A stretch of 64,000 nucleotides of DNA. Origin: a virus. The position numbers and the translations under genes were made by a program. The first letter of the stretch is position 1. Each line of letters starts with the position of its first letter. The stretch is from the IMG/VR virus record IMGVR_UViG_3300024262_003767; one strand, 5' to 3'. Shown piece by piece: positions 1-55,134 of this stretch. The notes beneath the pieces were generated by a model. The model did no database searches and had not been told where the DNA came from. It was given only the letters and a program-made list of their open reading frames with translations.

Positions 1-1280
1 AAGAAAAAGGCTAGTTTCTTAATATTTTTACCTTCACATTTTGGATTAACACACATAATTTCAACTCCACTTTTATTCCAAACTAACTCAGAACCACAAC
101 TTGGACAATGTGTTGGAACATCTGCTTGTGTCGGTACTGAAACTCCAACGATTTTAGGAATAACAGATCCTGAACGAATAATTTCCACAACAGCATCTTT
201 ACCAATTTTATTATCTAAAATAAATTTCGCATTATAACCAGTCGCTCTTGAAATTGTCACACCTTCAACGTCAAATGGTACAACATTCACAACAGGTTTT
301 ACATAACCATTTTTTGATGTTTCCCAATCATTGAAAAGTGTTGGTGTTGATATTGGTTTTGCCCAATCTGATTTGTATGCAATTGCGTATGATGGATTGT
401 TATTTGTTTCTCTACCTAATTGTTTTCGTAATTTTTCATCATTGACATCAAGAACAATACCATCAATTTCATATTTTTCACCCCAAGTGTAATATAATTC
501 ATCTAACATTTCTGATGTTAGTTCAGAAATGCGAATTTTTTTGAAAGGAACTTTAAATCCTGTTTCTTTTTCAATGAGTTCAATTTGTTCTAACTTGCTC
601 ATATCTTCATCAGCAACACCATAACGAACATGATCAACAAATTCCCAATAAGGCGATACTTCATCGTGATTAACTAAGCCAGCAACCATATTACGAGGAT
701 TTTTATAAGGTTCACCATTACTTCTCACAAAATTATTTTCTTCAAAAACTTGTCTTGGAATAATGAGTTCTCCAATTGTGTAAAATTCAACAGTTGATGG
801 TTTAGAATCTGTGAATGTGTTTAGATGTTCTGTGATATTTTGACCTTCAATACCATCACCTCTTGAGTGTGATACTTGTGTAAATTCATTTCTAAGTGCG
901 GAAACGCCATCATATTTGGCTGTTGCGATTAATATTGTATTTAAAGGTATACCTTTATTTTTTGCCCATTTTTTTACTTCTTCAACAGTTTTCTTTTTTT
1001 CAAGTGAGTACATTGGTTTATCCAATGTTTCCATTCTTTCTGTTGAACCTAAATCTTCAACATTTTCAATAACAGCGTTATCAAAAAGTTCATCATTTGG
1101 TTTGATTTCTTTCATTTTTTCAACTAATCTATCATAGTCTCTATCAGAAAGTTCACCACTTTTTTTACCTAAAAATTCTTGAATATCTTCTGTAAGTTCT
1201 GATATATCTACTGGATTACCAATTCTATACCTTGCATTTGAGATTAAAATTGCGTCTTTTAGGTTCTGTTGAAATGTCAT
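1..1280 (-). CDS. ligA: NAD-dependent DNA ligase (LigA), N-terminal ~426 aa; the 3' end runs off the window start
   Basis: Manual translation of minus strand from ATG (rc of 1278-1280): MTFQQNLKDAILISNARYRIGNPVDISELTEDIQEFLG...; adenylation motif KYDGVS (KxDG); Zn finger CPSCGSEL...C..C near window edge; no stop inside window so absent from ORF track. Confidence 0.85.
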   Translation of the reverse strand, partial: MTFQQNLKDAILISNARYRIGNPVDISELTEDIQEFLGKKSGELSDRDYDRLVEKMKEIKPNDELFDNAVIENVEDLGSTERMETLDKPMYSLEKKKTVEEVKKWAKNKGIPLNTILIATAKYDGVSALRNEFTQVSHSRGDGIEGQNITEHLNTFTDSKPSTVEFYTIGELIIPRQVFEENNFVRSNGEPYKNPRNMVAGLVNHDEVSPYWEFVDHVRYGVADEDMSKLEQIELIEKETGFKVPFKKIRISELTSEMLDELYYTWGEKYEIDGIVLDVNDEKLRKQLGRETNNNPSYAIAYKSDWAKPISTPTLFNDWETSKNGYVKPVVNVVPFDVEGVTISRATGYNAKFILDNKIGKDAVVEIIRSGSVIPKIVGVSVPTQADVPTHCPSCGSELVWNKSGVEIMCVNPKCEGKNIKKLAFF

Positions 1281-8675: not shown

Positions 8676-9188
8676 TTATTTCAGGTAAATAGGATCAACG
8701 TGATCAACTAACCATACACCATTTTCTGATTGATAAAATTTAATTTTATCAACAATCATTGGATAAGTATCAATTTTGAAGATATATGGAGTATCATTTT
8801 TACAATATCTATTTGCAACATCTAAAGCAGTATCATAATCAGCACTTAGATGTACATGATTTCTTTTCATTTTAGAAAGTCCATTTTTTCTAATTGATTT
8901 AACATTTCTAGATGCTGTGCCGTGATATAAAAATTTTGGTGGCATCTTTGATTTCAATTCAACATCAACTTTTAAAGAATGTCCTTGATTTGCTCTAATT
9001 TTAGTTTCATCTTCATTAAAACTAAATCTTTTCTTATCATTATTATCTACAATCCATTGTAAATCTTCAAATGATATATTAACTTTATTCAATAAATCAT
9101 CAACATCAACCCAACCATTTTTATCCATAGACAAATCTTCTGGGTTATGTCTTAATAAATAACTTATTTGTATTCCTTTATTTTTCAT
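8676..9188 (-). CDS. kptA: RNA 2'-phosphotransferase KptA/Tpt1
   Basis: Near-collinear with E. coli KptA: LLRHNPEDL, NGWVDVDDLL, RFSF, NQGHS, PPKFLYHGTASR, HVHLSAD, ENGVWL. Confidence 0.9.
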   Translation of the reverse strand: MKNKGIQISYLLRHNPEDLSMDKNGWVDVDDLLNKVNISFEDLQWIVDNNDKKRFSFNEDETKIRANQGHSLKVDVELKSKMPPKFLYHGTASRNVKSIRKNGLSKMKRNHVHLSADYDTALDVANRYCKNDTPYIFKIDTYPMIVDKIKFYQSENGVWLVDHVDPIYLK

Positions 9189-10265: not shown

Positions 10266-10275
10266 AATTAATAAA

Positions 10276-27352: not shown

Positions 27353-28216
27353 TTAATTTAATTCACCTTCCCAAACAATTTTATATTCATATTTACCTGG
27401 TAGTAGTATAATTTCTCTTTGATTTGTATGGTAATATTGTGTTGGTAATTTCTGTACGTCAACTAGTACATCTTTAGGTTGTACTTCCATCATAATAACA
27501 AAAGGTGGTGATGATGGTTGTTCATCCACAAATCTTCTAGCCACTAATATATTTGTAGTCCAAGATGTCGACATATTGAAATCGGATATAACTTTTTCAC
27601 CAACTTTGTATGGTGGGGTTTTTTTTGAAAAATGTTTTATTTGAACTTCTTCAATACCTTTATAAATCTTTAAAGGTTTATCTGGTTTAAAAGGTTTTAA
27701 TTCGTCTATAATATCTTGTGTTAATTTTGATAATAACAAAGAGCCAGAACCTATATATGAATATAACCAATCATCAGTTTTTTCAGATAATTCAACATTT
27801 ATCCTTTCAGGTGTATGTTTATCATATTTAGTAAATCCTCCAATGTAACGAAAAGATATCACATCTCCATTTTTAATTCTTGCTAACCATTCACCTGTTA
27901 TTGAATGTTTATAAAAATAACCAGAATAATCATCAACATCAACTTCTTCATCTTCACTAAATCCAAAAAAATCTACAATTTGTTTATATAGAGGTTTTTT
28001 TGTTTTAATTTGATAGATATATTCACTATTTATATCAGATGCGTCTGCTCTATTTGTTAAATAGATTCTTTTTAAATGATTTAGATTACTAAAATCTATA
28101 TCTTCTAATTTTAATGGTTCATCAGAATATAAATATAAATTTCCATTATATGTTTTTTGATCGTAATCTACTTCATTATAATCTACAAGTTCAAATAATT
28201 TGAATTTAGTTATCAT
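27353..28216 (-). CDS. hypothetical protein
   Basis: 287-aa ORF overlapping the start of the cca gene. Confidence 0.55.
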   Translation of the reverse strand: MITKFKLFELVDYNEVDYDQKTYNGNLYLYSDEPLKLEDIDFSNLNHLKRIYLTNRADASDINSEYIYQIKTKKPLYKQIVDFFGFSEDEEVDVDDYSGYFYKHSITGEWLARIKNGDVISFRYIGGFTKYDKHTPERINVELSEKTDDWLYSYIGSGSLLLSKLTQDIIDELKPFKPDKPLKIYKGIEEVQIKHFSKKTPPYKVGEKVISDFNMSTSWTTNILVARRFVDEQPSSPPFVIMMEVQPKDVLVDVQKLPTQYYHTNQREIILLPGKYEYKIVWEGELN

Positions 28217-31366: not shown

Positions 31367-31774
31367 TTATTTTTTTTGAAACTTTTTTATACGCTTAATA
31401 GTTTCTTTAAGATCTTCTTCATAATATAATATTAAAAAGTCAACATCCCTCTCATTAATATTATATCTTTTCATTAAATCATCTATCTCTTCTTTTTTAA
31501 ATTTAGATTTGATTTTTGTGGTTTTATTTATTTTAGTTTGCCAATACCAACCAGGTATATTTGTTGTACTACCAAATATTGCGAACCAAATATCTAATGA
31601 TGATGGTTTATTTATATTTTTATTATTAAAAAATTGTGCTTTTTTTATATCCTTATAGGCGAATTTGCGATTGAGAATAAAAAAATTTCTTTCTTTATCA
31701 TCATCAGTAATAAACCTATATTTATCTTTATCTTTGAAGATGATGTTTCCTAAACTTATAAAATCAATTGCCAT
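31367..31774 (-). CDS. hypothetical protein
   Basis: 135-aa ORF. Confidence 0.5.
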   Translation of the reverse strand: MAIDFISLGNIIFKDKDKYRFITDDDKERNFFILNRKFAYKDIKKAQFFNNKNINKPSSLDIWFAIFGSTTNIPGWYWQTKINKTTKIKSKFKKEEIDDLMKRYNINERDVDFLILYYEEDLKETIKRIKKFQKK

Positions 31775-33954
31775 TAATAAAATTGTTTAAATATTTTTGA
31801 GATTTTTTCTTTTGTTATTGGTTTTACAATTTGAAAATCTATATTCTTCTCTACCATATCTGTGGTAGATATTGTAATTATAGTTAACTCTTCATCTATT
31901 TGTTTTAATTTTTCTATGAAATCTAGTATATTAATATTTGATAAACTCATATCTATAAATATTGCATCAATATCACCTAATTTTTCTTCAAGTACATCAA
32001 GTGTTTCCTTTGATGATAGTGTCCATTTAATTTTAACATTCATAGATTTTAACATTATACCTAATAATGAATAGTTTTCAGGTATATCTTCTAATACTAT
32101 CACTTTAATATTAGAAAAATCATACACAATTTTATTAACTTGTTTTGTTTGAATATTTTGAACTTCTTGTAATGGAAGAGTAAAAAAGAATGTGCTTCCT
32201 TCTTTTTGAGTTGAATCTACCCATATATTTCCACCAAGTATATTAACTATACTTTTTGCGATAGATAATCCCAATCCTGTACCTTGGTATTGTTTTTTTG
32301 ATGATGCATCAACTTGCATAAATTTATCAAAAACTATTTCTAATTTATCTTCTGGAATACCAATACCAGTATCTTCAACAAAGAATGTTATAATATTGTC
32401 TTTTATTCTTGTACCAATTCTTATATGTCCACTTTCAGTAAATTTAATTGCATTACTAATCAAATTATATAATACCTGTTTTAATCTAAGAAAATCAGAC
32501 ACTATTATTTCATTATCTTCTCGTTTTTCGAAAGTTAATTTTACCGAATCTATATTCTTTCTAATATTTATATCTATAAAAATTTCTTCTAATTCTTCAA
32601 ATAAATCATTGATTGGGAATCGTTCATATAATAGTTCTAAATTTAATTCACCTGCTTCAATTTTAGCATAATCTAATATGTTATTTAATAATTCTTCTAA
32701 ATGTTTTGCATTAGCATTTATAGTTTTAAGAAATTTTTTATTATTGGTAGTATCAAACTTATCATCTAATAATATATCTGAAAAGCCTATAATCGAATTC
32801 ATTGGCGTTCTTATTTCGTGACTCATATTTGCCAAAAATAGTGACTTTAAAAGATCACTTTTTTCTGCTTCTATTTTTGATTTTTCTAATTCTATTTTAA
32901 TATTTTCTTGTTCTGTAATATCTTTACAATGAATTGCAATATACTCCGTTGAGCCATTATCATTTAAAATGGGATATATGTAATTTTCAAAATATTTATT
33001 ATTTATAACATCAATAAAATGTACTGGTTTGCCTGTAAATATTGCTTCAAGTGTTCTTTTTCTTTTGGGTTCTACACTCTCTTTAGGTAAAATCTGTGAT
33101 ATGTTCACTCCTACTAATTCTTCTCTTGTTTTATTAAAATATTTACAACCTCTATCATTTATTGCTAATAACTCACCTACTTTATTTGTTAAATAAGATG
33201 CACTTAATGTTGAATTTATAATATCTAAGTGTTGTCTCTCCTTTATTTTCATATCAGTAATATCTTGAAATATGGTAACAAAACGATGTGAGTTTTGTTT
33301 ATATGCATCAATTAAAAACCATTTCTGAAAAATATATGAATATTTTTCAAAATGTAAAGTCTTATTATCAGTAAATATTTGAGAATATATCCTTATCCAT
33401 TCACTCGAATCTTTATCTAATATTTCAGTTATATTTTTTCCAATAATTTCTGAATCTAAACCTGTGGTTTCGGTGAACGCTTTATTTATTCTAACAAATT
33501 TATAATCAATAGGTTTGCCACTATTATCAAATATCATTTCATGTAGAGAAAATGCTCGACTCATATTATCAATAATCTTTTCAAGTTCTTCACTTTTAAA
33601 AATATAATCTTTACTTATTTGAGATAAATGTTTTTCATCTTGATATACAACATGTACAAAATTTTCCTCACCTCGATAGATATAATTATATCTCCAACGA
33701 TTAAATTTATCGTCTTTATACTCTTTTAATTCGTGTGTCATACATTCTCCACTATCATACACTTTTAATATTTTATCATAAATACCAAAGTCGATTACTT
33801 TAGAAAAAACATCAACCAATTTTTTATCAATAACATCATATTCAATTCTTTCTACCGTATAAAAATTTTCTGATACTTCGTGAAAATATATATCTTCATC
33901 GATAATTTTATATGTGATAGAAACAAAATCAAAAATTTTTTCAAAATTTTTCAT
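31774..33954 (-). CDS. soluble hybrid sensor histidine kinase (PAS-like repeats + HisKA + HATPase + receiver)
   Basis: H-box SHEIRTPMNSIIGFSDIL; N-box NLISNAIKFT; G1 DTGIGI; G2 GTGLGLSI; C-terminal REC-like VIVLED...IFIDMSL...ITIS..KP; no N-terminal TM segment. Confidence 0.85.
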   Translation of the reverse strand: MKNFEKIFDFVSITYKIIDEDIYFHEVSENFYTVERIEYDVIDKKLVDVFSKVIDFGIYDKILKVYDSGECMTHELKEYKDDKFNRWRYNYIYRGEENFVHVVYQDEKHLSQISKDYIFKSEELEKIIDNMSRAFSLHEMIFDNSGKPIDYKFVRINKAFTETTGLDSEIIGKNITEILDKDSSEWIRIYSQIFTDNKTLHFEKYSYIFQKWFLIDAYKQNSHRFVTIFQDITDMKIKERQHLDIINSTLSASYLTNKVGELLAINDRGCKYFNKTREELVGVNISQILPKESVEPKRKRTLEAIFTGKPVHFIDVINNKYFENYIYPILNDNGSTEYIAIHCKDITEQENIKIELEKSKIEAEKSDLLKSLFLANMSHEIRTPMNSIIGFSDILLDDKFDTTNNKKFLKTINANAKHLEELLNNILDYAKIEAGELNLELLYERFPINDLFEELEEIFIDINIRKNIDSVKLTFEKREDNEIIVSDFLRLKQVLYNLISNAIKFTESGHIRIGTRIKDNIITFFVEDTGIGIPEDKLEIVFDKFMQVDASSKKQYQGTGLGLSIAKSIVNILGGNIWVDSTQKEGSTFFFTLPLQEVQNIQTKQVNKIVYDFSNIKVIVLEDIPENYSLLGIMLKSMNVKIKWTLSSKETLDVLEEKLGDIDAIFIDMSLSNINILDFIEKLKQIDEELTIITISTTDMVEKNIDFQIVKPITKEKISKIFKQFY

Positions 33955-38389: not shown

Positions 38390-39280
38390 TCAAAATATAA
38401 GGCTACTTTTCGTTTCCCAACGTGAATATAATTTTCCGTTCTCCCTCAATATCAAATATTTGTATGTATCTTTAACTTCTTCATTCATACAATCATCATC
38501 AACTACGACAGACATTTCATCAATATCGTAAATTGATGCACCAAAAGGAAGTTTACCTAAATATCTACCATTCTTTACAACATATTCAGAAATTTTATCA
38601 TAAAATATTGAAGATGCGTTTTCTTCAATCCATTTATCAATTTCATTGTTTGTTTCTGATTTGTAAAGTTTCCTAAATGTAATCTGATCTGCACCCATTT
38701 CTTTACATTTATTTAAAACTTCATCAACTGAATATTTATCATAATCATCAACAAGATTTAATGATAATCTAAGATTGAAATCATATTTTTTGATAAGAGA
38801 AATAATTTCATTCATATCAAATTTCAATTTATCTTTACATCCAATTATACTCATATTTTTTTCATTATCAAAAACATTAGATATTGAAAGTGAGATTGTT
38901 GTTACTCCAATATTCCTTAAAAATTTAAGGCTTATATCATCTAATAACACACCTGTACTTTGAATTTCAATACTTTTAAAAGGTGTAATCAATTTTGAAT
39001 TTGTCTCAGAAAAGAATTTCAAAAATGGAAAATTTTGTGTTGGTTCACCTGTACCTGTTAATATAACAACATTACAACCATTATCTCTTGCAAATTGTAA
39101 ACGATTAAAATAATCTTTATATTCAATTGTAGTAGTATCTACATCAACCCAAAATTTATCTTTCTTTTTTAAACAATTAGAAACTTTATCACTATAAGGA
39201 TTTGTGTGCGTCCTACTCACACAAAATTTTACACATTTGTTTTTTGTAGGGACAACAATCGATAAACTCTGTATATTCAT
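38390..39280 (-). CDS. radical-SAM-like TIM-barrel protein with non-canonical Cys motif (tentative)
   Basis: VVILTGTGEPTQNF resembles the radical-SAM GGEP motif; Cys motif CVKFCVSRTH...C (C-x3-C, third Cys displaced) instead of CxxxCxxC. Confidence 0.3.
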   Translation of the reverse strand: MNIQSLSIVVPTKNKCVKFCVSRTHTNPYSDKVSNCLKKKDKFWVDVDTTTIEYKDYFNRLQFARDNGCNVVILTGTGEPTQNFPFLKFFSETNSKLITPFKSIEIQSTGVLLDDISLKFLRNIGVTTISLSISNVFDNEKNMSIIGCKDKLKFDMNEIISLIKKYDFNLRLSLNLVDDYDKYSVDEVLNKCKEMGADQITFRKLYKSETNNEIDKWIEENASSIFYDKISEYVVKNGRYLGKLPFGASIYDIDEMSVVVDDDCMNEEVKDTYKYLILRENGKLYSRWETKSSLIF

Positions 39281-39402: not shown

Positions 39403-39912
39403 ATGAATTGGTATGTAATACGAGTAGTAACTAGTAAAGAAAAGAAAACAAAAGAATTAATTGAAAAAGAATTGGAACTATATAAATTAGATAATAAAGT
39501 GTCTCAAATTTTGGTTCCAAGTAAGAAAGTGATGCAAATGAGAAATGGTAAAAAATATACTATTGAAAAGAATGATTTTCCAGGATATATTCTCATCGAA
39601 ACGGATAAAGTTGATGAACTAGTTTCAACTATTAAAAATGTTTCAAATGTTTTAGGGTTTTTAGGTGTGACTCACCCAGAACCACTAAGGCAAAGAGAGG
39701 TGGAAACAATCGTTGGTAGACAAAATAACACAATAGTTGAAGATAAATATTTTATTGGTGAAGTTGTAAAAGTCACCGACGGTCCTTTTAACTCATTTGT
39801 TGGTGAAATTATTCTAGTGAATGATAAGAAGAAAGCTGTAAAAGTGAACATTAAAGTTTTTGGACGTGATGTTCCAGTAGATTTGACTTATATTCAGATA
39901 GAAAAGAATTAG
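39403..39912 (+). CDS. nusG: transcription termination/antitermination factor NusG
   Basis: Collinear with E. coli NusG: WYVIRV (NGN), FPGYILIE, KVTDGPFNSFVGEI (KOW), VFGRDVPVDL. Confidence 0.85.
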   Translation: MNWYVIRVVTSKEKKTKELIEKELELYKLDNKVSQILVPSKKVMQMRNGKKYTIEKNDFPGYILIETDKVDELVSTIKNVSNVLGFLGVTHPEPLRQREVETIVGRQNNTIVEDKYFIGEVVKVTDGPFNSFVGEIILVNDKKKAVKVNIKVFGRDVPVDLTYIQIEKN

Positions 39913-39975: not shown

Positions 39976-41106
39976 TTATTCCTCTTTTTCTTTAACTAAG
40001 TTAAGATATATCTTTCTATCATCTTTGATAACAGAAATAACCTTAACTTTTACTTGATCACCTTTCGTTAATTTGGCATTATTCTTCACAAGGTATGTGG
40101 TTTGTATTAACCCCATAGTTTCATAGTCAAGTGAAATTAATGCTCCAAAATTTTTCACATCAATTACTTTTCCTGATAATATTTTACCTACTTTAATTTT
40201 ATCCCAAAGAGACTCTTTTAAAGATTGTGTTAGTATAATCTTTTGACTTTTTGTGATTTCCTTAACATAAAAATCAATTGCCATACCAGGTAGGATTTGG
40301 TGCCATCTATCTTGCCACTCAGTATTTATGTTCATTTTATGAATCATACCTGTAAGACAATTATTGAATTGAACAAATACTCCAAATGGTGTTGTTCCAG
40401 TAACTTCGCCTGCATAAACGACATCATTTTTTAGTTTTTTGATCTCTTCTGGTATAAGTGTCTTAAGATATTTTCTTCGTGAAACAACATAAACCCCCTT
40501 TTCTTGTTGCAATGTCTCTAACATCACATTTAGAGTTTCACCAATAATTGATTCAGGATTTGCGAGTTTATTAACATCAGCTAATGTATTTGGCATAAAC
40601 GCATCGATAGTTACATTATCCATATAAATATCAAGCATATAGCCTGCTGGTATTAATTCCTTCACCTTAGCAACAAGTGATAATCTTTCTTCATAATAAG
40701 TTTTCAATTTATTATGAACATTCATTTTAATTAATTCTGTAATAGATCCTCTTATTAAGAATGGATCGTCTTGAATTGATGTTATTAGTACATCAATTTG
40801 TGAACCAGGCTCTAACCCTATCACTAATTTTCCTTTTGGTGTGTCAACATAAATGTAGTCTTTATACCCAAAATCAACAGTTATTTCTGTATCATCTATA
40901 GATACTATCACACCTTTGATTATTTCCCCTTCTCTTACTTCTCTTAAATCAAGAAAAGTTTTTTCCATCATACGATAAAGATTTTGATAATCTTCAGTAA
41001 GATTAGATAAATCACCTTTTACTTTGATTATTTCTCTATCATTAGTTAGAAACGGAAAAGGATCAGGAAGTGATCCTACATTTACGCCTTCGATTAATTT
41101 CGACAT
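39976..41106 (-). CDS. S1 RNA-binding-domain repeat protein (ribosomal protein S1-like, ~4 S1 domains)
   Basis: Repeated S1 signatures: GEIIKGVIVSIDDTEITVDFG, GEVTGTTPFGVFVQFNNCLTGMIH, GKILSGKVIDVKNFGALISL. Confidence 0.7.
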   Translation of the reverse strand: MSKLIEGVNVGSLPDPFPFLTNDREIIKVKGDLSNLTEDYQNLYRMMEKTFLDLREVREGEIIKGVIVSIDDTEITVDFGYKDYIYVDTPKGKLVIGLEPGSQIDVLITSIQDDPFLIRGSITELIKMNVHNKLKTYYEERLSLVAKVKELIPAGYMLDIYMDNVTIDAFMPNTLADVNKLANPESIIGETLNVMLETLQQEKGVYVVSRRKYLKTLIPEEIKKLKNDVVYAGEVTGTTPFGVFVQFNNCLTGMIHKMNINTEWQDRWHQILPGMAIDFYVKEITKSQKIILTQSLKESLWDKIKVGKILSGKVIDVKNFGALISLDYETMGLIQTTYLVKNNAKLTKGDQVKVKVISVIKDDRKIYLNLVKEKEE

Positions 41107-45291: not shown

Positions 45292-45495
45292 ATGAAAACG
45301 TTAAAGAAAAACAATGAAATTAAAAGAGTAAAAGATTCTTCACCATCAGACGAGGCACAAATTCAAAGTTTATTAAACTCTGGATGGAAATATTGTCCGA
45401 AAAGTGAATGGAAAGCAACAAGACCTGTAAAGGAAAAAGTTGACAAGAAAAAAGTTGACAAGAAAGAGAATAAAAAAAGAGGTATAGATTCGTGA
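45292..45495 (+). CDS. small Lys-rich protein with tandem KKVDKK repeat
   Basis: 15-bp tandem repeat gaaaaagttgacaag x2 encoding KVDKKKVDKK. Confidence 0.4.
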   Translation: MKTLKKNNEIKRVKDSSPSDEAQIQSLLNSGWKYCPKSEWKATRPVKEKVDKKKVDKKENKKRGIDS

Positions 45496-46370
45496 GTTTA
45501 AAATTGAAAAAAATTGTAAAATCAACACATGATAATACAATTAAATACATTTATTACACCAACGACAATTTAATTATAGAATTTTCTTACATAGATAAAA
45601 ATGATGGTAAAAATATTATATGTGCACCATCACAAACAATGTGTAATATTGGTTGTAAATTTTGTCACACCACAGATCATATTGGAAAAATCAAAACTAG
45701 AAATTTAACGGAATATGAAATATCTGATGGTGTTGAATATATATATAATGATTTGAATTTATCAAAAAATCCAAAAACATTATTGATATCATATATGGGT
45801 TGTGGTGAACCAATTCTCAATGTAGATGGTGTAGTTAACTCTATGCGTATCATAAACGAGATGTATGATGTATATACAAGGTTTGCAATTGCAACATCAA
45901 TACCAGAATATAAATATATTGAATTTTTTAATTTTACTAATAAAATTGATGAATTAAAATTACCAGTAAAATTACACTTATCGTTACACTATACTATGGA
46001 TCAAATTAGATCGCAATGGATGCCAAAATCTATGAATATTATTGAATCTTTAGCTGCTGTTGATTTTTTCAAAAAGAAAACTAATAATTCAGTTGAAATA
46101 CATTACGCTTTACTTGATGGTGTTAATGATACTGAACAAGATGCAATACTTTTAACTAATTTAATAAAAGATAGAGACTTTAATGTAAAATTTTTATTTT
46201 ATAATAAAAGAGAGATATTGGATATTGAACCATCAGACAAACAAAAATTGAGAACATTTAAAAGATATTTCAATAAATATAATATTGAACATGAGTATTA
46301 TATACCACCAGGATTAGATGTTGGGGCATCATGTGGACAATTCTTAATGGAAGAATATACCGAAAAATAA
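45492..46370 (+). CDS. RlmN/Cfr-family radical SAM RNA methyltransferase, short form lacking the N-terminal domain
   Basis: IICAPSQTMCNIGCKFCHT (RlmN: vSsQvGCal.CkFCsT), MGCGEPILN (GMGEPLLN), C-terminal VGASCGQF (AACGQL). Confidence 0.75.
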   Translation: MSLKLKKIVKSTHDNTIKYIYYTNDNLIIEFSYIDKNDGKNIICAPSQTMCNIGCKFCHTTDHIGKIKTRNLTEYEISDGVEYIYNDLNLSKNPKTLLISYMGCGEPILNVDGVVNSMRIINEMYDVYTRFAIATSIPEYKYIEFFNFTNKIDELKLPVKLHLSLHYTMDQIRSQWMPKSMNIIESLAAVDFFKKKTNNSVEIHYALLDGVNDTEQDAILLTNLIKDRDFNVKFLFYNKREILDIEPSDKQKLRTFKRYFNKYNIEHEYYIPPGLDVGASCGQFLMEEYTEK

Positions 46371-46380: not shown

Positions 46381-46914
46381 ATGAAAGTAATAGTAATTAA
46401 TGGTACAGCACAAACTGGAAAGGATAAGTTTGTCTCTTTTTTTAATGAAGTCGCAACCGAACTAAGAGTAAAGAATTATTCATCAATTGATAGAGTTAAA
46501 CAAATAGCCGAAATATGTTTTGGTTGGGACACTAAAAAGAATGATAAATCTAGAAGATTTTTATCAGAAATTAAAAGAATTTGGACTGATTTTAATGATG
46601 GTCCGTTTGAGGTTATTAAAAATCAAATAGATGTTGATATAATATATTCAAAAAATAATAATAAAGATGTAAGTAAAAATATCTATTTTATACATATACG
46701 AGAACCAGAAGAAATAAAAAAAGTTAAAAAATATTACGATATTTTCTGTGTTACACTTTTAATAAAAAAAGATGTAGATTTTATTCCTGATAATGATTCA
46801 GATAAAAATGTTGAAAATTTTGATTATGATTATATTGTAGATAATAATGGTTCAGAAGAAGAATTAAAAATACGAGCCGAAGAATTTCTAACACACATAA
46901 AAAAAACCTTGTAA
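46381..46914 (+). CDS. deoxynucleoside monophosphate kinase (T4 gp1-like)
   Basis: N-terminal MKVIVINGTAQTGKDKF parallels T4 gp1 MKLIFLSGVKRSGKDT (Walker A ending in GKD). Confidence 0.55.
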   Translation: MKVIVINGTAQTGKDKFVSFFNEVATELRVKNYSSIDRVKQIAEICFGWDTKKNDKSRRFLSEIKRIWTDFNDGPFEVIKNQIDVDIIYSKNNNKDVSKNIYFIHIREPEEIKKVKKYYDIFCVTLLIKKDVDFIPDNDSDKNVENFDYDYIVDNNGSEEELKIRAEEFLTHIKKTL

Positions 46915-46933
46915 GAAATTACAAGGTTTTTTT
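46901..46933. terminator. bidirectional terminator between the dNMP kinase gene and the convergent clpB
   Basis: A-run, ccttgtaagaaattacaagg, T-run; hairpin overlaps the stop codon. Confidence 0.65.
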
Positions 46934-46955: not shown

Positions 46956-49472
46956 TTAGGCTTCTAAAAGTGGAGTTTCATCTTTTGGTGGTAATTCTTT
47001 ACTATTCAAATTAACAATAGTAATCTCACCATCTTTACTTCTAAGTGAAACTTTATCACCAATTTTAATTTCACCATTGAGAATAGCATCTGTTAGAGTA
47101 TCTTCAATGTGTCGTTGAATTGCTCTTTTCAATGGTCTTGCACCATATTCAGCATCCCATCCTTCTTCAAATAAGAAGTCTTTAAGTGACTTTGTGATAT
47201 TTACAACATAACCAATATCTTTAAGTCTATCGAGAGTTGTTTTAATTTCAAGGTCAATAATTCTGAAAATGTTGTCTTTTGAAAGAGCGTTGAACATTAT
47301 AAGTTCATCAACTCTATTAAGAAATTCTGGTGCAAATTTCTTTTTCAATTCTTTATCAATAACAGCGTTCTTCTTATCTTGAATGTTTTTGTTGGTGGCA
47401 TTTGTTTGAAATCCCATACCTGTACCAAAATCTTTAAGTTGTCTTGAACCTGTATTCGATGTCATTATGATAATTGCGTTTTTAAAATTAACTCTTCTAC
47501 CATAACTATCAGTAAGAATTCCATCATCAAGAACTTGTAGAAGTATATTAAATACGTCTGGATGCGCTTTTTCCATTTCATCAAGAAGAACAATTGAATA
47601 TGGTTTTCTTCTGATGGCTTCAGTTAATTCACCACCATCATCATAACCAACATATCCTGGAGGCGCTCCAATCAATTTTGAAACTGAATGTTTTTCCATA
47701 TATTCAGACATATCAATTCTAATGAGGTTTTCTTCTGAACCAAAGAGTTCTTTTGCTAGAACCTTTGCTAAGTAAGTTTTACCGACACCTGTAGCACCTA
47801 AGAACATAAATGTTCCGACAGGTTTTTTAGGATCTTTGATACCAATTCTACTACGTTTGATTGAACGAACAATTTTATCAACAGCATCATCTTGTCCAAT
47901 AACAATATTTTTCATTTTAGTTCCAAGATTTCTCAATTTGTTTGATTCATCATCATCAACAGCATCAAGTGGGATTTTGGTCATCATTGAAACAACTTCA
48001 GCAATATCTTCTTTTCCAACGATTTCACGATTTTCGTCCAATTTTTCGTTCCATTCCTCTTTCAATTTTTTCAATTGTTCTGTAAGGTTTCTTTCTTTAT
48101 CTCTCCAAGAAGCAGCTTTTTCAAATTTCTGTTCGTCAACACATTCAGTTTTCTTTTTCTCGGCTTCTGAAATTTTACTTTCAAGAATAGAAATAGCTTT
48201 AGGTTGATTTGAATTTGAATCTACATGAACTTTGGCACCAGCTTCATCCAAAGCGTCAATTGCTTTATCTGGCATAAATCTATCATTCATATATTTATCA
48301 GTCAATTTTACACAAGCTTCAATTGCTTCATCTGTGTACACGACTTTGTGATAATCCTCATATCTAACTTTGAGTTGTTTAAGGATTTCAATAGTTTCTT
48401 CAATGGTAGTAGGTTCTACCACAACTTTTTGAAATCTTCTTTCTAATGCACCATCTTTTTCAATATGTTTTCTATATTCTTCGAGAGTAGTTGCACCAAT
48501 ACATTGGAATGTTCCTCTTGCTAATGCTGGTTTTAACATATTAGATGCATCAAGTGAACCTTGTGCGCTACCAGCACCAATAATTGTATGAATTTCATCA
48601 ATAAAAAGTATAATGTTTGATGTTTCTTCAATTTCTTTGATAATTCCTCTTAAACGAGATTCAAATTCGCCACGATATTTTGTTCCTGCAACAAGGGCAC
48701 CCATATTAAGGGTGAAAATTCTTTTATCTTTAATGTTGTTTGGCACTTTACCATCAACAATTCGTTGTGCTAAACCTTCAACAATTGCAGATTTGCCAAC
48801 TCCAGGCTCACCTATAAGAATAGGATTATTTTTCTTTCTACGTGAAAGAATTTGACTTATTCTTTTAATCTCAATTTTTCTACCAACAACTGGATCGAGA
48901 GAACCTTCTTTTGCTTTTTTGGTAATATCTTCACCAAATTGTTCAATAAGTTTAGGTTTCTTATTTTTATTTGATGCTGTTGTATCACTATGATGCATTT
49001 CTGGATCATCCCAATCTGCACTATTACTTATTCCAGTAACTTTTTCGTGTAATTTTTTAATTATCTCACCTTCATCAATTTTTGAAAACATATCATTTAA
49101 AATATTATTTTTAGTATTTAAGAGTGAAAGTAATACTACATCAGTATCAACATATTTGACATCCATTTCATCAATTATTCCAACACAATTTTCAAGTATG
49201 TCCGTAACTTCTTGTGATAATTGTACTTTATCTTTTCTCTCTGCCAATTGAATATGCTCCATTTGGTTTCTCATTACCAAAGCATCTTGAATAGTTTTTT
49301 TGATTGTTGGAATACGAATATCAATTTCTTGAAGAACTTGATAAGCACGATAATTTTCATCCTCAATTAGAGCCAAAAACAAGTGTTCTGGTTCAATTTC
49401 AGATGATTTATATTGCAACGCAATCGTCTTACTATTCTTAATCACATTATCTACGTCTTTGTTAAAGTTCAT
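46956..49472 (-). CDS. clpB: ClpB/ClpC-family AAA+ chaperone (two nucleotide-binding domains)
   Basis: N-terminal Clp-N repeats; NBD1 GEPGVGKS + LFIDEIH; NBD2 [10 protein letters not shown] + [14 protein letters not shown]; sensor GARPLKR. Confidence 0.9.
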
Positions 49473-49538
49473 AATTAATTTTTTTAGTTATAATTTATAT
49501 ATTTAATTTTCTTTATAGGAGTTTTCCTCTTTTGTTTA

Positions 49539-49760
49539 TTAAAATAAATTGAAAATATCAATGTTTTTTGTTTCTCTCTCAAATATCATACCAAGATAAA
49601 ATAATGGAAAAAAGATAATAGATGCTACCCAAATATATATTCCTCGTACAAACCAAGCTGGTTTGATAAATGGTATCGCCCAATTTTTATATAAGTCCCA
49701 ATCTTCTTTCACAAAATTTAGATAAATATATAACATATATTTTGCTATAAATATTTTCAT
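49539..49760 (-). CDS. small membrane protein
   Basis: 73 aa, two hydrophobic segments. Confidence 0.35.
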   Translation of the reverse strand: MKIFIAKYMLYIYLNFVKEDWDLYKNWAIPFIKPAWFVRGIYIWVASIIFFPLFYLGMIFERETKNIDIFNLF

Positions 49761-49777
49761 TCGTTTTTTATTATTTT

Positions 49778-50080
49778 TTAATCTTTCTCAATCGTGAGTG
49801 TTAATCCTTGTTCTTCAAGTGCGGATTTAAAAGGTTTTAATTTATCTTTTGAACCAGTTTTTAAGATACTCGCACCTTTCATATGAACTGTCCAAGCTGT
49901 GTTTTCAGCTTTTTCTGGACTAAAACTCATAATTGATATCAGACATAAAATTACATGATCAAAAGAATTGACTTCATCATTCCATAAAATCAATTTATAG
50001 ACTTTATCATCCGATGGTTCAATACCCGCTTTACTGAGTATTTCTTCTAATGTTTTTGTTATTTCTTTTGTGTCGCTCAT
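49778..50080 (-). CDS. clpS: ATP-dependent Clp protease adaptor ClpS
   Basis: YKLILWNDEVNSFDHVI...AENTAWTVHMKGAS, typical ClpS core. Confidence 0.85.
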   Translation of the reverse strand: MSDTKEITKTLEEILSKAGIEPSDDKVYKLILWNDEVNSFDHVILCLISIMSFSPEKAENTAWTVHMKGASILKTGSKDKLKPFKSALEEQGLTLTIEKD

Positions 50081-51375
50081 ATTCCTAATTCCTCTTTATA
50101 TAGTTTAACAGTATTAAAGTTTCCAGTATATTTTCCTTCACTATCAGACAACTTTACACAATCTCTCCAAACTTTCATTCCTTCAGGTAAGGCTTCAGAC
50201 ATCTTAATTACCATATTTAAAGGTTTTGCCTTTTTTAAAGTTTCCATAAAATAACCACCATTTGGATTTGGTATCGATTCCCAATTAAATTGGTTATGAT
50301 AATCTTCATCATAGATACCATTTTGTGAAACCAAAACAACATCGTTTGATAGCCAAGTACCTATACCATAGGAAGATAATATTTTATTTCTCACACAATT
50401 TTCAATTGTTTTAATTTTTTCTATACTATTTATAGAGTCAGAAAATACAATTGTTTTTGGAATCATACCATTAGGCATTTTAATACCTTTATTTATGTAA
50501 TGTTTGATAGTTTTTTCTGCGAATTCAACAGGTTCACCAGAATCTTGACGAACACCGTCAAATAATTTTGAATAAAATAAATCAAAACCTTCAAAGAAAA
50601 TATCTGTTGTATATGTATCAGAAAGTGCAATTCCTAATGCTCCTTTATAAGCATCTACCCAACGACCCATTCCTACACGATTAGCCATCATCACACCGTA
50701 TTTAGCAGCGTGAAACATAAACCATTCGTGTGCCTGAGTTCCAATTGCTTTAATACCATATTTACGAGCAAACATCACATTGGATGTACCAACGATTGTT
50801 TTTGGTGCAACTTTCAAAAATTCTTCAATAACTCTACCTTGGATAAATTTTGAAAATCTTCTGCGGGTTCCAAATTCAGATAATGAAATTCCAAGTTCAG
50901 ATAATTGTTTAAATTTTTCATCCCAAATTTCCATTGACTTTTCTAAGTCAACTTCTTCACCTGAGAAAAGGAAGAATAATTCTGATATTAAAGCCATTAA
51001 TTGAACTTCCCAAAATATAGTTTTGTGCCAAAAACCTTCAATTTCTATTTCTAATACACCATTTTTTTGAGTAACTTTAACTTCATTAGGATCATATTGA
51101 TAACTCCTAAGATACATATAATAGGAAATATCAAAGAATGGAAGTTTACTTTTCAAATGTTCTTCAATTTCTTTGGTAAATTTTAAATTTTTGAAATGAG
51201 CAATCTGTTCTTTTAACTCGGTAGCAAAACCTTTTGGAAATTTACGGGTTTTATCTCTGAGTATGAACTTATACTTAACCTTAGCGTTAGGATAGTGTTT
51301 TAGTATGGCAAATTGCATGAAATACTTATAGGCGTCCTGATCATCAAATTCGGTAATTATTGGTTTAAATCTCAT
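50077..51375 (-). CDS. pncB: nicotinate phosphoribosyltransferase
   Basis: Collinear with E. coli PncB: DAYKYFMQ, FWEVQLMALISE, FGTRRRFS, GTSN, GTQAHEW. Confidence 0.9.
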   Translation of the reverse strand: MRFKPIITEFDDQDAYKYFMQFAILKHYPNAKVKYKFILRDKTRKFPKGFATELKEQIAHFKNLKFTKEIEEHLKSKLPFFDISYYMYLRSYQYDPNEVKVTQKNGVLEIEIEGFWHKTIFWEVQLMALISELFFLFSGEEVDLEKSMEIWDEKFKQLSELGISLSEFGTRRRFSKFIQGRVIEEFLKVAPKTIVGTSNVMFARKYGIKAIGTQAHEWFMFHAAKYGVMMANRVGMGRWVDAYKGALGIALSDTYTTDIFFEGFDLFYSKLFDGVRQDSGEPVEFAEKTIKHYINKGIKMPNGMIPKTIVFSDSINSIEKIKTIENCVRNKILSSYGIGTWLSNDVVLVSQNGIYDEDYHNQFNWESIPNPNGGYFMETLKKAKPLNMVIKMSEALPEGMKVWRDCVKLSDSEGKYTGNFNTVKLYKEELGI

Positions 51376-51376
51376 A

Positions 51377-52078
51377 TTATAAAAATTTTCCTATTGTTTC
51401 TGATTCAATTTCAATATCTTTTACTGAATTAATAACAAGTATATTATAATCGATTACTAACATTTCAATATATTTATCTAATTCTTCTTCTGTTCCTAAC
51501 CCTTTTGTTGCGGCAAGATTTAAGATAACTTGAAATCCAGCATTGGACAAATCCTTTAAAGTTTCACCTACACAGTAATTAAGTGCTAATCCACCAACAA
51601 TAATTGTTGTTATATTGTGATAATTATAAAATTCAATCAACCCAGTCGAAATTTTACCTTCTTGATCGTGATAAACACTTGTGTAAGGGTGTAGGTGTGG
51701 ATCGACTCCCTTATTTACAATAAAGTTAAAATCTTCAATTTTACCAAGTTCATCAAGAATTTCCGAACCAAATGTTCCTGATTCACAATGCAAATTCCAA
51801 AACATATCAACATTTTTGTGTCCAACTATAGGTGTGAATTGAGGATTTTCTTCAGTTGCTACCCATAACGCATTTTTTGAGTGCATATCTCTTGATATGG
51901 TTTTAACAATTCCTATTAAATTTTGTTTTGCTAATTCTTTACCAATTAGGTGTCCATCAGGTACAGGTAGTTCATTAGGACAGAGTGGAGTAAATCCCTT
52001 TTGAGGGTCAACGTTGTGACTTGCTGTTCTTTCGCTAATCACTCTAATCTTATTCGTATTTTCAAAACTTATATTCAT
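51377..52078 (-). CDS. pncA: nicotinamidase/pyrazinamidase (isochorismatase family)
   Basis: DPQKGF, K, and catalytic Cys in IIVGGLALNYCVGETL. Confidence 0.85.
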   Translation of the reverse strand: MNISFENTNKIRVISERTASHNVDPQKGFTPLCPNELPVPDGHLIGKELAKQNLIGIVKTISRDMHSKNALWVATEENPQFTPIVGHKNVDMFWNLHCESGTFGSEILDELGKIEDFNFIVNKGVDPHLHPYTSVYHDQEGKISTGLIEFYNYHNITTIIVGGLALNYCVGETLKDLSNAGFQVILNLAATKGLGTEEELDKYIEMLVIDYNILVINSVKDIEIESETIGKFL

Positions 52079-52164: not shown

Positions 52165-52569
52165 TTATTCGTGAATTCTTTTAAAGTTTTCAATATATTT
52201 AGACATATTTACGGAGCCTATAATATTTTGAGTGTGAATTATACATATTGGTAATTTTTCATTATTATCAATACAGTAATCACACAACCATTTGACACAC
52301 TCCATACCTGTTTTTTCGGTGTATTTTGAGTAATCAACATCATCTTGATTTAATAAATATTGATAATGTTCATCTGCTAAATCGTGATCAAAACTAATCA
52401 TTTGAGGTAAACCATTTAACTCAATACATTTAATAAATTGATCGTAAGACCTAACAATAACCCAATCGAGATTTATATAGTCCATATTTTGTGTATAGTA
52501 ATATGCGTCCTCATAATTTCCATGAGGGGAATATGGAACTCTTTCATCATCTAAAAACAAATTGTACAT
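52165..52569 (-). CDS. hypothetical protein
   Basis: 134-aa ORF; LFLDDER...SFDHDL motif of unknown family. Confidence 0.5.
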   Translation of the reverse strand: MYNLFLDDERVPYSPHGNYEDAYYYTQNMDYINLDWVIVRSYDQFIKCIELNGLPQMISFDHDLADEHYQYLLNQDDVDYSKYTEKTGMECVKWLCDYCIDNNEKLPICIIHTQNIIGSVNMSKYIENFKRIHE

Positions 52570-52620: not shown

Positions 52621-52974
52621 TTACAGTTTCTGTAACATAGTTATTATTTCGGTTAATGTTTCATCGTAATTGAGAATTCTTTTGTGTAAACTCTCATATC
52701 TTTCGTGGAAAAAGACATCACGATTTTTTACTGTAATATATGTGTCGTCTTTTTTGAAATTTATCTTAAATTGGTAGTTTCTATTATCATACTCAATATT
52801 ATGAATAACTTCATTATATTGAAAATCTCTCCACGTTCTACTAAATCTAGTTTTAATAACAAATTTGCATGGTTCATTTTTAAAAACCTTATTTAGATTT
52901 TCCAGTTCAATACGTATATGTCGTCCTCTTTGGTTATACATATTATATTCATCTATTTTTGTTATCATAATCAC
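52621..52974 (-). CDS. hypothetical protein
   Basis: 117-aa ORF. Confidence 0.5.
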   Translation of the reverse strand: MIMITKIDEYNMYNQRGRHIRIELENLNKVFKNEPCKFVIKTRFSRTWRDFQYNEVIHNIEYDNRNYQFKINFKKDDTYITVKNRDVFFHERYESLHKRILNYDETLTEIITMLQKL

Positions 52975-52981: not shown

Positions 52982-53016
52982 AAAAAAAACCTCCCAAAAA
53001 ATTGAGAGGTTTTTTA
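52982..53016. terminator. bidirectional terminator downstream of the flotillin gene
   Basis: A-run, aacctc-ccaaaaaattga-gaggtt, T-run. Confidence 0.65.
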
Positions 53017-53033: not shown

Positions 53034-54539
53034 TTACTTCTTATCAGGTTTTTCAGTTTTTTTGGTTTTTGCTTTTTCTTCAAGCAATTTAACCATATCT
53101 GCATTACCTTCTAAGAATCCAGGCATATTCTGACCAACCATTTTAAAAGCGTCATCCATTGGAGGAACAGATTTTAAAAGGTTTGTCAACCAATTAGAAG
53201 TAGATGATCCAGCACCTTCACCACCATTACCAGTATCCCAAACTGTGATGTTATCAAATTTAATTTCTTTGATAGCTTCAACTTGAGTTCTAATAATTTC
53301 TGGAAGTTTGTCTGCAATCATCATTTGGACAGCCTTATCAGGATCACCACCCGCTGCACTTACATAAGCGGCAAAACCTTCGGCTTGTTTTGTCATTTGT
53401 TCAAACGTACCACGAGCCTGAGCATCCATCATAAAGAATACTCCATCAGCCTTACCTTTTTCAACTCTACGAATTCTTTCAGCTTCAGCCTCAGCATCTA
53501 CTTCAATTTTTTCTTTTTGAATCTGTGCAGGTACAACAATATCAGCGAATTTTTGAGAACGTTCTCTTTCTGCTCTCGCATCTTCAGCGATTTTCTCAGC
53601 TTTGTATGACTCTTCAAGAGCGTTTGCTGATTTTGTTTTTTGAGCAACGACAATTTTACGATCAGCCTCAGCTTCGGCTTCTCTCCTACCAGCAATAGAA
53701 TTTGCGATTTCAATAGCCGCTTTATTTTCACCATCAACAGCAGTTGAGTTAAAGGCTGCAGTATCAATTCTCATATTCTTATCTGCTTCTTTTTCACCAA
53801 TAACGGCTCTTGAATTAGCAGATGCGACTTTAATTCTTTGCTCTCTTTGAGCCTCAGCGACACCAATATCCCCATCTCTATCTTTCTCAGCAACTGATTT
53901 CTTTGCTTCGTTAATAGCCTGAGCCGCAGCTTCTTTACCAAGAGCCTCAATATAACCAGATTCATCATCAATATCTTTAATATTAACGTTGATAAGTTTC
54001 AAACCAACTTTCTTAAGTTCGTTTTCAACATTATCTTGAATCTTACTCAAGAAAGCGTCACGGTTAGCGTTGATTTCTTCAATAGTAAGAGTTGCGATAA
54101 TCGCCCTCATTTGACCAAAAATAATATCCTGAGCCAACGCTACGATTTGTGTATCTTGAAATCCCAACATTCTTTCAGCGGCATTAATTTTGAATTCATC
54201 TTCTGATGAAATCGCAACGGTGTACGTTGAAGGAACATTTACACGAATATTCTGATTCGAAAGTGCAGATTTCAAATCAACTTCAAAAGACATAGGTTTC
54301 AGAGATAAGAACTTGTATTCCTGAATGATAGGCCAAACAAATACACCACCTCCGTGATATACTCTGGCGCTGGCGTGTCCTGACCGTCCTTGTGAGTCGG
54401 CTTTTCCCTTCACACGCCCATATACAACTAAAAGTTGATCAGAAGGGCACCTTTTATATCTTGCTTTAAAAGTAAAGAAGAATGCGAAAAAGGCAATCGC
54501 TGCTAATCCAATGATAATAGCAATCGAAAATGATACCAT
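53034..54539 (-). CDS. flotillin-like SPFH/band-7 protein (YqiK/FloA-like)
   Basis: N-terminal TM; SPFH core; long Ala/Glu/Lys-rich coiled region (EAEAEADRKIVVAQ...AEAEAERIRRVE). Confidence 0.85.
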   Translation of the reverse strand: MVSFSIAIIIGLAAIAFFAFFFTFKARYKRCPSDQLLVVYGRVKGKADSQGRSGHASARVYHGGGVFVWPIIQEYKFLSLKPMSFEVDLKSALSNQNIRVNVPSTYTVAISSEDEFKINAAERMLGFQDTQIVALAQDIIFGQMRAIIATLTIEEINANRDAFLSKIQDNVENELKKVGLKLINVNIKDIDDESGYIEALGKEAAAQAINEAKKSVAEKDRDGDIGVAEAQREQRIKVASANSRAVIGEKEADKNMRIDTAAFNSTAVDGENKAAIEIANSIAGRREAEAEADRKIVVAQKTKSANALEESYKAEKIAEDARAERERSQKFADIVVPAQIQKEKIEVDAEAEAERIRRVEKGKADGVFFMMDAQARGTFEQMTKQAEGFAAYVSAAGGDPDKAVQMMIADKLPEIIRTQVEAIKEIKFDNITVWDTGNGGEGAGSSTSNWLTNLLKSVPPMDDAFKMVGQNMPGFLEGNADMVKLLEEKAKTKKTEKPDKK

Positions 54540-54567
54540 AATTTTAAAATTTAAATGTTAATAATTA

Positions 54568-55134
54568 TTAATTTGATTTACTTACTTTAACTAAATTATC
54601 TGTGATAAATTCAGTTACAATTACTTGTGAATTTGTATCAATTTTTTCACCAGTTTCTGAAAGAGCGTCAATAGTTCTCAATGCGCCACGAATGGACATT
54701 TGAATTTTTCCTCTCTTATCTTTTCCTGGTATAACCAGATACACGGTTGCAGGTTGTTTCAATACATCATTTTTATCGATGTCATTTGGTGTTGCTTGAA
54801 GTTTTTTGAAACCGAACATAATAGATGCGAAGATGATAGTTAGAACTAAACCAGAACCAACCGAAATTATAATTGATAGCCAAGTATTATAACCTTGTTC
54901 AATGCAAAAAACACCTACCCAACCAAAGAATGCTAAAAAATTAATCAAACTTCTTAGAGTAAATGCTTCACCCATTATACCACTTGCACCATCAACATCA
55001 AAATCACCATCTACGTCACCTATACCATCAGCATCCATATCTGAATCCATTCCGAAAAAGGCAGAACCATTCAAAAATAAAAAAATCGCACCGAATACGA
55101 TTGCGATGATGTAAAATACTGTTAAAAGTGTCAT
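54568..55134 (-). CDS. NfeD/YqiJ-like membrane protein (flotillin partner)
   Basis: Three TM segments followed by a C-terminal OB-like domain (ATVYLVIPGKDKRGKIQMSIRG...QVIVTEF); immediately upstream of the flotillin gene, as in bacterial operons. Confidence 0.7.
   Translation of the reverse strand: MTLLTVFYIIAIVFGAIFLFLNGSAFFGMDSDMDADGIGDVDGDFDVDGASGIMGEAFTLRSLINFLAFFGWVGVFCIEQGYNTWLSIIISVGSGLVLTIIFASIMFGFKKLQATPNDIDKNDVLKQPATVYLVIPGKDKRGKIQMSIRGALRTIDALSETGEKIDTNSQVIVTEFITDNLVKVSKSN

Follow-up and report, generated by a model that had tools for sequence, protein, structure and literature searches.

A predicted transcription unit of a putative huge phage carries pncA and pncB beside a conserved clpS-orf73-clpC gene set

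Gene content and predicted transcription of the locus

We analyzed a 64,000-nucleotide stretch of viral DNA (IMG/VR record IMGVR_UViG_3300024262_003767; this whole stretch is called the window below) for a run of minus-strand genes that would link the salvage of nicotinamide adenine dinucleotide (NAD+) with the Clp system. An initial annotation of the window had placed pncA, pncB, and clpS in one minus-strand unit, and the gene coordinates, an ATGA overlap, and the terminators all agree with this. The unit that we predict is larger, orf117-cREC-pncA-pncB-clpS-orf73-clpC, and our favored reading, which we hold to be rather probable, is that it joins two self-sufficient modules, cREC-PncA-PncB and ClpS-orf73-ClpC, whose adjacency in a huge phage was mostly inherited.

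The first gene of the unit, orf117 (52621..52974; minus strand, as are all genes of the unit), had no family match and was 62% identical in the sister contig L032. It is followed by a gene for a cyclic-phosphate-processing receiver (cREC) domain protein (52165..52569; PF20274, 75.8 bits), which is also kept upstream of pncA in L032. Next come pncA (51377..52078), encoding a PncA-like nicotinamidase of 233 amino acids (aa) and of a divergent subtype that was recognized by Pfam and Protein Data Bank (PDB) alignments, and pncB (50077..51375), encoding a nicotinate phosphoribosyltransferase (NAPRTase) of 432 aa that was identified by Pfam, NCBIfam, and PDB alignments. The remaining genes are clpS (49778..50080), for an N-degron adaptor of 100 aa; orf73 (49539..49760), for a small hydrophobic protein of 73 aa recognized by its conservation in the clade described below; and clpC (46956..49472), for an 838-aa double-ring AAA+ unfoldase of the ClpC type with Clp_N, D1, a short UVR M-domain, D2, and an MGF loop. 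The pncA stop is separated from the pncB start by 1 nt, the pncB stop and the clpS start are joined by the 4-nt ATGA overlap, and clpC starts 305 nt downstream of clpS on the same strand.

An intrinsic terminator-like hairpin with a 14-bp stem and a T-run (52984..53015, minus strand), which ends the upstream SPFH gene, delimits the unit on its 5' side, and a bidirectional intrinsic terminator with a 15-bp stem (46900..46933) directly past the clpC stop delimits it on its 3' side. A terminator scan of the minus strand detected only one weak 6-bp stem, inside pncB, between these two strong hairpins. Because the two hairpins bracket the genes, with only the weak stem between them, and because pncB and clpS overlap, we predict that the seven genes are transcribed as a single unit. 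A scan for sigma-70 promoters was uninformative (45 sites, against 48 expected from shuffled sequence), and searching the entire window for Rfam families and tRNAs returned no match, so that no NAD+ riboswitch was found. Directly upstream of the unit, with the strong terminator between, lie two genes, one for a 501-aa SPFH/Band-7 protein and one for a membrane protein of 188 aa (53034-55134, minus strand); the SPFH/Band-7 protein is kept in L032 at 77-90% identity.

ClpS matched PF02617 with 60.3 bits (Pfam cutoff 23) and did not reach the NCBIfam ClpS equivalog cutoffs (best score 39.2 bits against 117). Residues N34, D35, and H66, which we take to be the N-degron pocket residues by E. coli numbering, were invariant among 16 phage and metagenome ClpS sequences. 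The match of the Clp ATPase to Bacillus subtilis ClpC was one continuous stretch (residues 9-819, 785 bits). The ATPase contained a UVR motif in a short M-domain (PF02151, 32.1 bits against 21.5), and the MGF in its D2 domain aligned with the VGF ClpP-docking tripeptide of ClpC. An (I/L/V/M)-G-(F/L) loop is known to dock ClpP. The ATPase had been called ClpB, or a ClpB/ClpC disaggregase, in the initial annotation; we rejected the ClpB identity, since ClpB structures matched in two separate stretches only and the TIGR03346 score was 896 bits against a cutoff of 1232, and the short UVR M-domain and MGF loop make it ClpC-type. Between clpS and clpC, orf73 was kept in every clade member (40-76% identity), again with no family match. 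ClpS-orf73-ClpC is predicted to be a conserved phage-encoded N-degron unit. In contig L278 (11896-15441), the ClpC homologue is a single open reading frame (ORF) of 1,181 aa in which an in-frame insertion of ~340 aa, possibly an intein, splits the ClpC-matching parts.

Conservation of clpS-orf73-clpC and exchange of pncB

Members of the clade were collected with a ClpS profile (a hidden Markov model), single-query tblastn having missed divergent ClpS genes. The contigs reach 531 kb, and clpS-orf73-clpC was found in all members. The order pncA...pncB...clpS-orf73-clpC is present in the window, L032, L279, L280, L281/282, and L266/267. L283-L287 keep clpS-(orf73)-clpC and have no pncA or pncB within 10 kb. 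In these gene orders, clpS-orf73-clpC is the stable core and pncA-pncB an accessory cassette. The junction of pncB and clpS also varied, from the 4-nt overlap of the window through a 16-nt gap in L278 to ~1.6 kb in L032, where it holds an opposite-strand gene for a CapR/Zn-finger endonuclease-like protein, and 2.7 kb in L266, with three ORFs inside. Among related huge phages, LR756502 and LR745206 carry ClpS ~235-243 kb away from the ClpC homologue and no PncB, and LR756500, LR756501, and LR756511 carry PncB with no ClpS, ClpC, or PncA within 20 kb of it.

PncB of the window scored above curated NCBIfam cutoffs (NF003704, 381.1 bits against 379; TIGR01514, 358.6 against 269.55) and contained both the N-terminal domain (PF17767, 110.7 bits) and the catalytic barrel (PF04095, 155.6 bits). 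It aligned over its full length with the solved NAPRTases 2im5 and 1vlp, the best being Porphyromonas gingivalis 2im5 (1.8e-70). In an alignment of 11 phage sequences, H216, R276/D278/S279/G280, and G337/G339/T340 (motifs GTxAHE, RxDSGD, and GIGT) were invariant, and GTQAHEW of the window aligned with GTVAHEW of the yeast enzyme; the histidine of GTxAHE is presumably the one that is (auto)phosphorylated, the residue roles being those of the literature. An insertion of ~37 aa (residues ~347-383, VLVSQNGIYDEDYHNQFNWESIPNPNGGYFMETLKKA) is missing from the solved NAPRTases and from the bacterial locus L141. PncB of the window was 27-46% identical to PncB of reference phage genomes, and the cellular PncB sequences nearest to it were almost all from Bacteroidota.

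Outside the clade, PncA and PncB of the window found their best match in the same locus, L141, with 52% identity each. L141 has 48% GC and ordinary bacterial genes, and its pncA and pncB lie side by side in divergent orientation. Because the nearest homologues of both proteins are encoded by adjacent genes of one locus, these data support the view that PncA and PncB form a genuine functional pair that may have been transferred jointly between bacteria and phages. PncA-PncB proximity recurs across many viral loci.

Pairwise identities of PncA, ClpS, and ClpC were congruent within the clade (71-88% between the window and L032, 54-63% between the window and the others), whereas PncB fell into three allele groups: the window with L280 and the bacterial L141 (52-56%), L032 with L281 and L266 (68-72%), and L279 alone. 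Identity between these groups was 35-44%; the PncA, ClpS, and ClpC proteins of the same clade are orthologs. This discordance indicates that pncB was replaced in situ at least twice in the clade. Genes for homing-endonuclease-like proteins (GIY-YIG or CapR/Zn-finger) abut the pncB slot in L032 and L278 (slot examples: L032 5057-7146; L278 7822-8556 and 10001-11341; window 50077-51375), which suggests that homing endonucleases may have driven the exchange of pncB alleles.

Taken together, the occurrence of clpS-clpC without pncA-pncB, the variable junction, the pncB replacements, the distant or missing genes in related huge phages, and the lack of ClpS and ClpC near PncB in the 80 closest bacterial loci suggest modularity, and that the juxtaposition of NAD and Clp genes mostly reflects an inherited genome backbone rather than mechanistic coupling. 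The "fusion" of NAD salvage with Clp functions that the initial annotation had described appears weak in the light of these same comparisons.

ClpS near NAD-salvage genes in other genomes

Several observations weigh against a reading of two independent modules with complete, working enzymes. In L001, a phage locus outside the clade, the order is clpS-pncB-81-aa ORF-Nudix-nadE, and in L011 it is clpS-like, orf125, nadD, a radical-SAM-like (rSAM-like) gene, pncB, nadE, and pncA, with ClpC not nearby in either. In four Mycolicibacterium genomes, the genes for NAPRTase and ClpS are divergent neighbors 66 bp apart (L352-L355, positions 2630-4303 of these chromosome loci). The PncA-like protein fell short of the NCBIfam PncA equivalog NF008623 (48.9 bits against a cutoff of 174). 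Finally, the window and the 7.7 kb to its left, part of a genome of likely ~0.5 Mb, contained no clpP and no nadD, nadE, pncC, or NMNAT-type gene, which leaves the last steps of both pathways to genes elsewhere in the phage or to the host.

ClpS lay less than 4 kb from PncB on the same strand in 7/81 viral PncB loci, including L001/2 and L011, and neither ClpS nor ClpC was near PncB in any of the 80 closest bacterial PncB loci. The L011 cluster (7751-12600 of IMGVR_UViG_3300017971_000200, 161 kb) is a complete nicotinamide-to-NAD+ cluster of an unrelated phage with a canonical pncA. In the reverse direction, where 178 loci were anchored on ClpS (98 viral and 80 metagenomic), PncB was nearby only in the clade itself and in L001/2; the metagenome scan with ClpS gave one close relative only, on the same contig as L032. 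The number of independent phage cases of ClpS with PncB is therefore only about three.

A homologue search with the mycobacterial ClpS returned Mycobacteriaceae only. In Mycobacterium tuberculosis, pncB1 (Rv1330c) and clpS (Rv1331) share the same neighborhood (PMC7873932, PMC8280819). As in the window, the NAPRTase and ClpS genes are immediate neighbors there; the mycobacterial pair is divergently transcribed, whereas that of the window is in one predicted operon. Mycobacterial PncB has 434-435 aa and PncB of the window 432 aa. We know of no reported functional link between mycobacterial pncB1 and clpS. The genes after ClpS in the Mycolicibacterium genomes encode DUF2017, Peptidase_S58, a JAB domain protein, ThiS, and a PALP enzyme.

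These neighborhoods bear on the possibility that ClpS, alone or together with ClpC, works as part of the NAD-salvage module. There it might determine how stable the salvage enzymes are, or hand host NADase effectors or other proteins connected with NAD over to Clp proteolysis, the operon being one counter-defence device. Such coupling would fit with pncB and clpS sharing a predicted transcript with an ATGA overlap, with the pncAB-clpS-clpC arrangement being kept among sub-clade members whose proteins are as little as 54-63% identical, with ClpS heading or sitting in the NAD clusters of two unrelated phages without ClpC nearby, with the mycobacterial pairs, and with the 7/81 viral against 0/80 bacterial loci. 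On the other side stand the scarcity of PncB near ClpS among the 178 ClpS-anchored loci, the sister clade members that hold clpS-clpC without pncAB, the junction that an opposite-strand gene interrupts in L032, and the small number of independent cases. To our knowledge, biochemistry has not so far tied ClpS to NAD metabolism, and we count this against coupling as well. On balance, we consider coupling unlikely.

Because ClpS recurs beside PncB in two unrelated phages and in Mycobacteriaceae, the adjacency is perhaps not pure accident. A broader proposal, that ClpS is a genuine, so far unrecognized partner of Preiss-Handler NAD salvage, could draw on at least three phage contexts (the clade, L001, and L011) and on the Mycobacteriaceae, and it seems to us still more doubtful. 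If it were true, N-degrons might control NAD-salvage enzymes or NAD-degrading effectors, and if the pattern held statistically, it would point to a link between proteolysis and NAD homeostasis.

Predicted chemistry of the pncA-pncB module

The window holds further genes of NAD+ and ADP-ribose metabolism outside the unit, and the initial annotation was right in listing KptA and an NAD-dependent ligase among them. The gene for the KptA/Tpt1 RNA 2'-phosphotransferase is at 8676..9188 (minus strand; PF01885, 160 bits). That for the NAD-dependent DNA ligase LigA (1..1280, minus strand), found in a scan of edge-touching frames, encodes the N-terminal 427 aa and runs off the left edge; on contig L221, the full-length LigA has 653 aa with adenylation, OB, Zn-finger, and BRCT domains. 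A Nudix gene (3690-4088) and a 2H/Acb1-like phosphoesterase gene (10510-11160) are also present, and a NADAR gene lies ~6 kb left of the window (L221 17826-18272). With cREC, these predicted proteins appear to make up a dense NAD+/ADP-ribose toolkit.

KptA/Tpt1 and SIR2/TIR NADases release nicotinamide, the substrate of PncA. An NAD-dependent ligase releases nicotinamide mononucleotide (NMN), not nicotinamide, and PncA-PncB therefore cannot recycle the ligase by-product. Of the recycling proposed earlier for KptA and the ligase, the KptA part holds and the ligase part does not; we rejected LigA as a nicotinamide source for PncA.

In the two-module reading, PncA would deamidate nicotinamide, supplied by the phage KptA and by host SIR2/TIR-type NADases if present, to nicotinate, and PncB would turn nicotinate, phosphoribosyl pyrophosphate, and ATP into nicotinic acid mononucleotide (NaMN). 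Conversion of NaMN to NAD+ would require NadD and NadE, which are presumably host enzymes, as neither gene was seen in the searched region. The net effect would be that NAD+ is kept available for phage enzymes, with or without a depleting defence system, and a counter-defence role of pncAB is plausible. In the second module, the ClpS adaptor and a ClpP-docking ClpC, laid out like bacterial clpS-clpA/clpC, would most likely feed selected proteins to a ClpP of the host or one encoded elsewhere in the phage. The enzyme activities and the use of host NadD, NadE, and ClpP are what we infer from the sequences.

PncA might instead serve mainly to clear nicotinamide and not to restore NAD+, nicotinamide being a product inhibitor of KptA and of sirtuin-type and ADP-ribosyl-transferring enzymes as well as a base-exchange substrate, and PncB would then dispose of nicotinate. 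The position of cREC directly upstream of pncA, together with KptA, Nudix, and 2H/Acb1-like genes in the window and NADAR just outside, suggests such a clean-up toolkit, and the lack of nadD and nadE in the searched region would fit. This explanation is nevertheless improbable in our view: pncB was retained, and on at least two occasions foreign alleles took its place in situ, which implies selection for the phosphoribosyltransferase step, and other phages cluster pncB with nadD/nadE (L011, L001; PMC11662467).

The identity of PncA itself was assessed by alignment. The isochorismatase fold was recognized by PF00857 (35.0 bits against a Pfam cutoff of 27). Residues D24 (VDPQKGF), K122 (VNKG), and C168 (NYCV) aligned with the triad of Acinetobacter baumannii and other solved nicotinamidases, the roles of these residues being taken by us from the established structures. 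D63/H65 (RDMH) and H97 (WNLHC) aligned with the metal ligands in DWH...HC of 2wt9. An Asp/His/His metal site separates nicotinamidases from other members of the isochorismatase family. The low NCBIfam score, the mere 35 bits on Pfam, and the atypical motifs DPQKGF, DMHS, and NYCV could be taken to mean that the protein is another isochorismatase-family hydrolase. We regard this as highly improbable, given that triad and metal-site residues align, that nicotinamidases account for the PDB matches, the one exception being a weak match whose deposited name is that of an alpha/beta-hydrolase-like protein, and that this PncA subtype adjoins PncB in bacteria and in phages. The protein appears to be a divergent PncA subtype common to the bacterial locus L141. 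The motifs FGTRRRFS, GTQAHEW, and NYCVGET named in the initial annotation are present in the translations, and on careful alignment the catalytic residues are retained in both PncA and PncB, which look catalytically intact. PncA matches in records named "Listeria phage" were to short unannotated records.

Phage context of the window

The window has a GC content of 27% and is syntenic over ~20 kb with IMG/VR and European Nucleotide Archive (ENA) contigs of 86-531 kb. The reference phage collection held no close relative; the nearest DNA matches were curated huge-phage genomes (LR7565xx). The Clp ATPase gene gave the sole DNA-level match in that collection, with ~70% DNA identity to LR756502 and LR745206, and the ClpC protein is 60% identical to that of LR756502. 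The LR756502 and LR745206 group comprises genomes above 634 kb predicted to infect Bacteroidetes (PMC7162821). The source would be an AT-rich huge phage, roughly of the 0.5-Mb class and related to Mahaphage-type genomes, and its host probably belongs to the Bacteroidota.

We give very little credence to a bacterial origin of the window or to its coming from some other mobile element. Capsid, portal, and terminase genes could not be recognized unambiguously in the 64 kb, but the window is syntenic with IMG/VR contigs, those of 235-531 kb among them, and its nearest DNA matches are huge-phage genomes. Genes of the HNH, GIY-YIG, and endonuclease-I-like kinds are numerous in it, a virion-protein-like domain and an SbcC-like protein (phrog) are present, and tRNA and rRNA genes and the usual bacterial core genes are absent.

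Genes for thymidine kinase and peptide deformylase were also found. The window further holds host-like genes at 31774-33954, 39403-39912, 39976-41106, 17501-18367, 28206-29465, and 45492-46370. They encode a hybrid PAS histidine kinase that has a receiver domain, NusG, an S1-domain protein, a class II aminoacyl-tRNA synthetase-like protein, a PolyA_pol/CCA-type nucleotidyltransferase, and an RlmN/Cfr-like radical-SAM RNA methyltransferase, the last scoring 138.8 bits, below the cutoff of 290. An rSAM-like protein of 296 aa (38390-39280, minus strand) has a degenerate CxxxCxS motif and a conserved C264; it had no sequence match in the PDB. Its homologues (L003-L022, L011, and others) lie directly upstream of pncB in 19/81 viral PncB loci and in 0/80 bacterial ones, and in the clade of the window the gene adjoins NusG/S1 and not pncB. 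The family is large and uncharacterized, with 1,755 matches on contigs of up to 711 kb.

Comparison with known systems

The initial annotation had described a PncA-PncB version in an operon with ClpS, beside a ClpB/ClpC disaggregase, as apparently distinctive. A phage route of the Preiss-Handler type is not new: Preiss-Handler genes and ClpS/ClpA-like genes have both been described in jumbo phages (PMC11662467, PMC7824862). Preiss-Handler clusters (pncB-nadD-nadE) with pncA were reported in 2024 in Microbiome in a study of NAD+ synthesis in 668 gut jumbo-phage genomes (PMC11662467). Like the phage studied here, those "NAD-jumbo phages" are very large and carry NAPRTase and nicotinamidase beside NAD+ consumers of the LigA/KptA type, and the same role was proposed. 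Their clusters are complete (for example, pncB-nadD-nadE), whereas only pncA and pncB are visible in the window and the 7.7 kb to its left. Annotated pncB genes are also found in Agrobacterium phage Atu_ph07 and Sinorhizobium phage Phosso, and the pncA-pncB1-nadE operon of the host is induced by jumbo phage PA5oct (PMC7318152), showing that jumbo phages draw on this route.

ClpS, ClpA/ClpX, and ClpP were reported in jumbo phages by Iyer et al. in 2021 (PMC7824862), who also defined cREC, there solely as a domain of neighborhoods that process NAD+/ADP-ribose. As would be the case here, the phage ClpS was proposed to bring targets to Clp proteolysis, and AAA+ Clp chaperones are found in some phages. 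In that work ClpS is described as acting with the host ClpAP, whereas the present clade encodes its own ClpC-type partner as part of a conserved trio. The layout also resembles that of bacterial clpS-clpA and ClpS-ClpC pairs (E. coli ClpS-ClpAP; cyanobacterial, plastid, and actinobacterial ClpS-ClpC), in which the adaptor gene is directly upstream of that for a double-ring Clp unfoldase, and the likeness extends to the conserved ClpS pocket residues and ClpC ClpP-docking tripeptide. It differs from them in being phage-encoded, in the inserted 73-aa hydrophobic ORF, in the lack of clpP from the searched region, and in a ClpS that scores below the NCBIfam cutoffs.

Depleting NAD+ is a major means of defence against phages. 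Three phage counter-pathways have been validated, namely NARP1 (Adps and Namat), NARP2 (Nampt and Nmnat), and NARP3 (PnuC and NadR), none of which uses PncA or PncB. In 2022, a virus-wide survey of NAD+-ADP-ribose genes put NadV, NadM, and NadR forward as the main enzymes of phages, with no mention of PncA or PncB (PMC9503650). Like the NARPs, the locus analyzed here encodes a route that could return NADase products to NAD+ precursors. It differs in being a deamidating route through nicotinate and NaMN, with four enzymes (two of them unseen) and no use of ADP-ribose. Among the window ORFs scanned, no signature enzyme of NARP1-3 and no NMNAT motif was found. A deamidating PncA-PncB route would be the fourth such pathway.

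Thus, the genes, motifs, predicted transcription unit, and NAD consumers of the initial annotation are borne out, the ClpB identity and the ligase recycling are not, and the joining of NAD salvage with Clp appears weak. Set against known systems, the locus is a further example of catalogued jumbo-phage gene sets and adds an example, not a concept. The gains are comparative: a conserved clpS-orf73-clpC unit, the repeated replacement of pncB alleles, and the recurrence of ClpS in NAD-salvage clusters, of which this last, so far unexplained, is the residual novelty.

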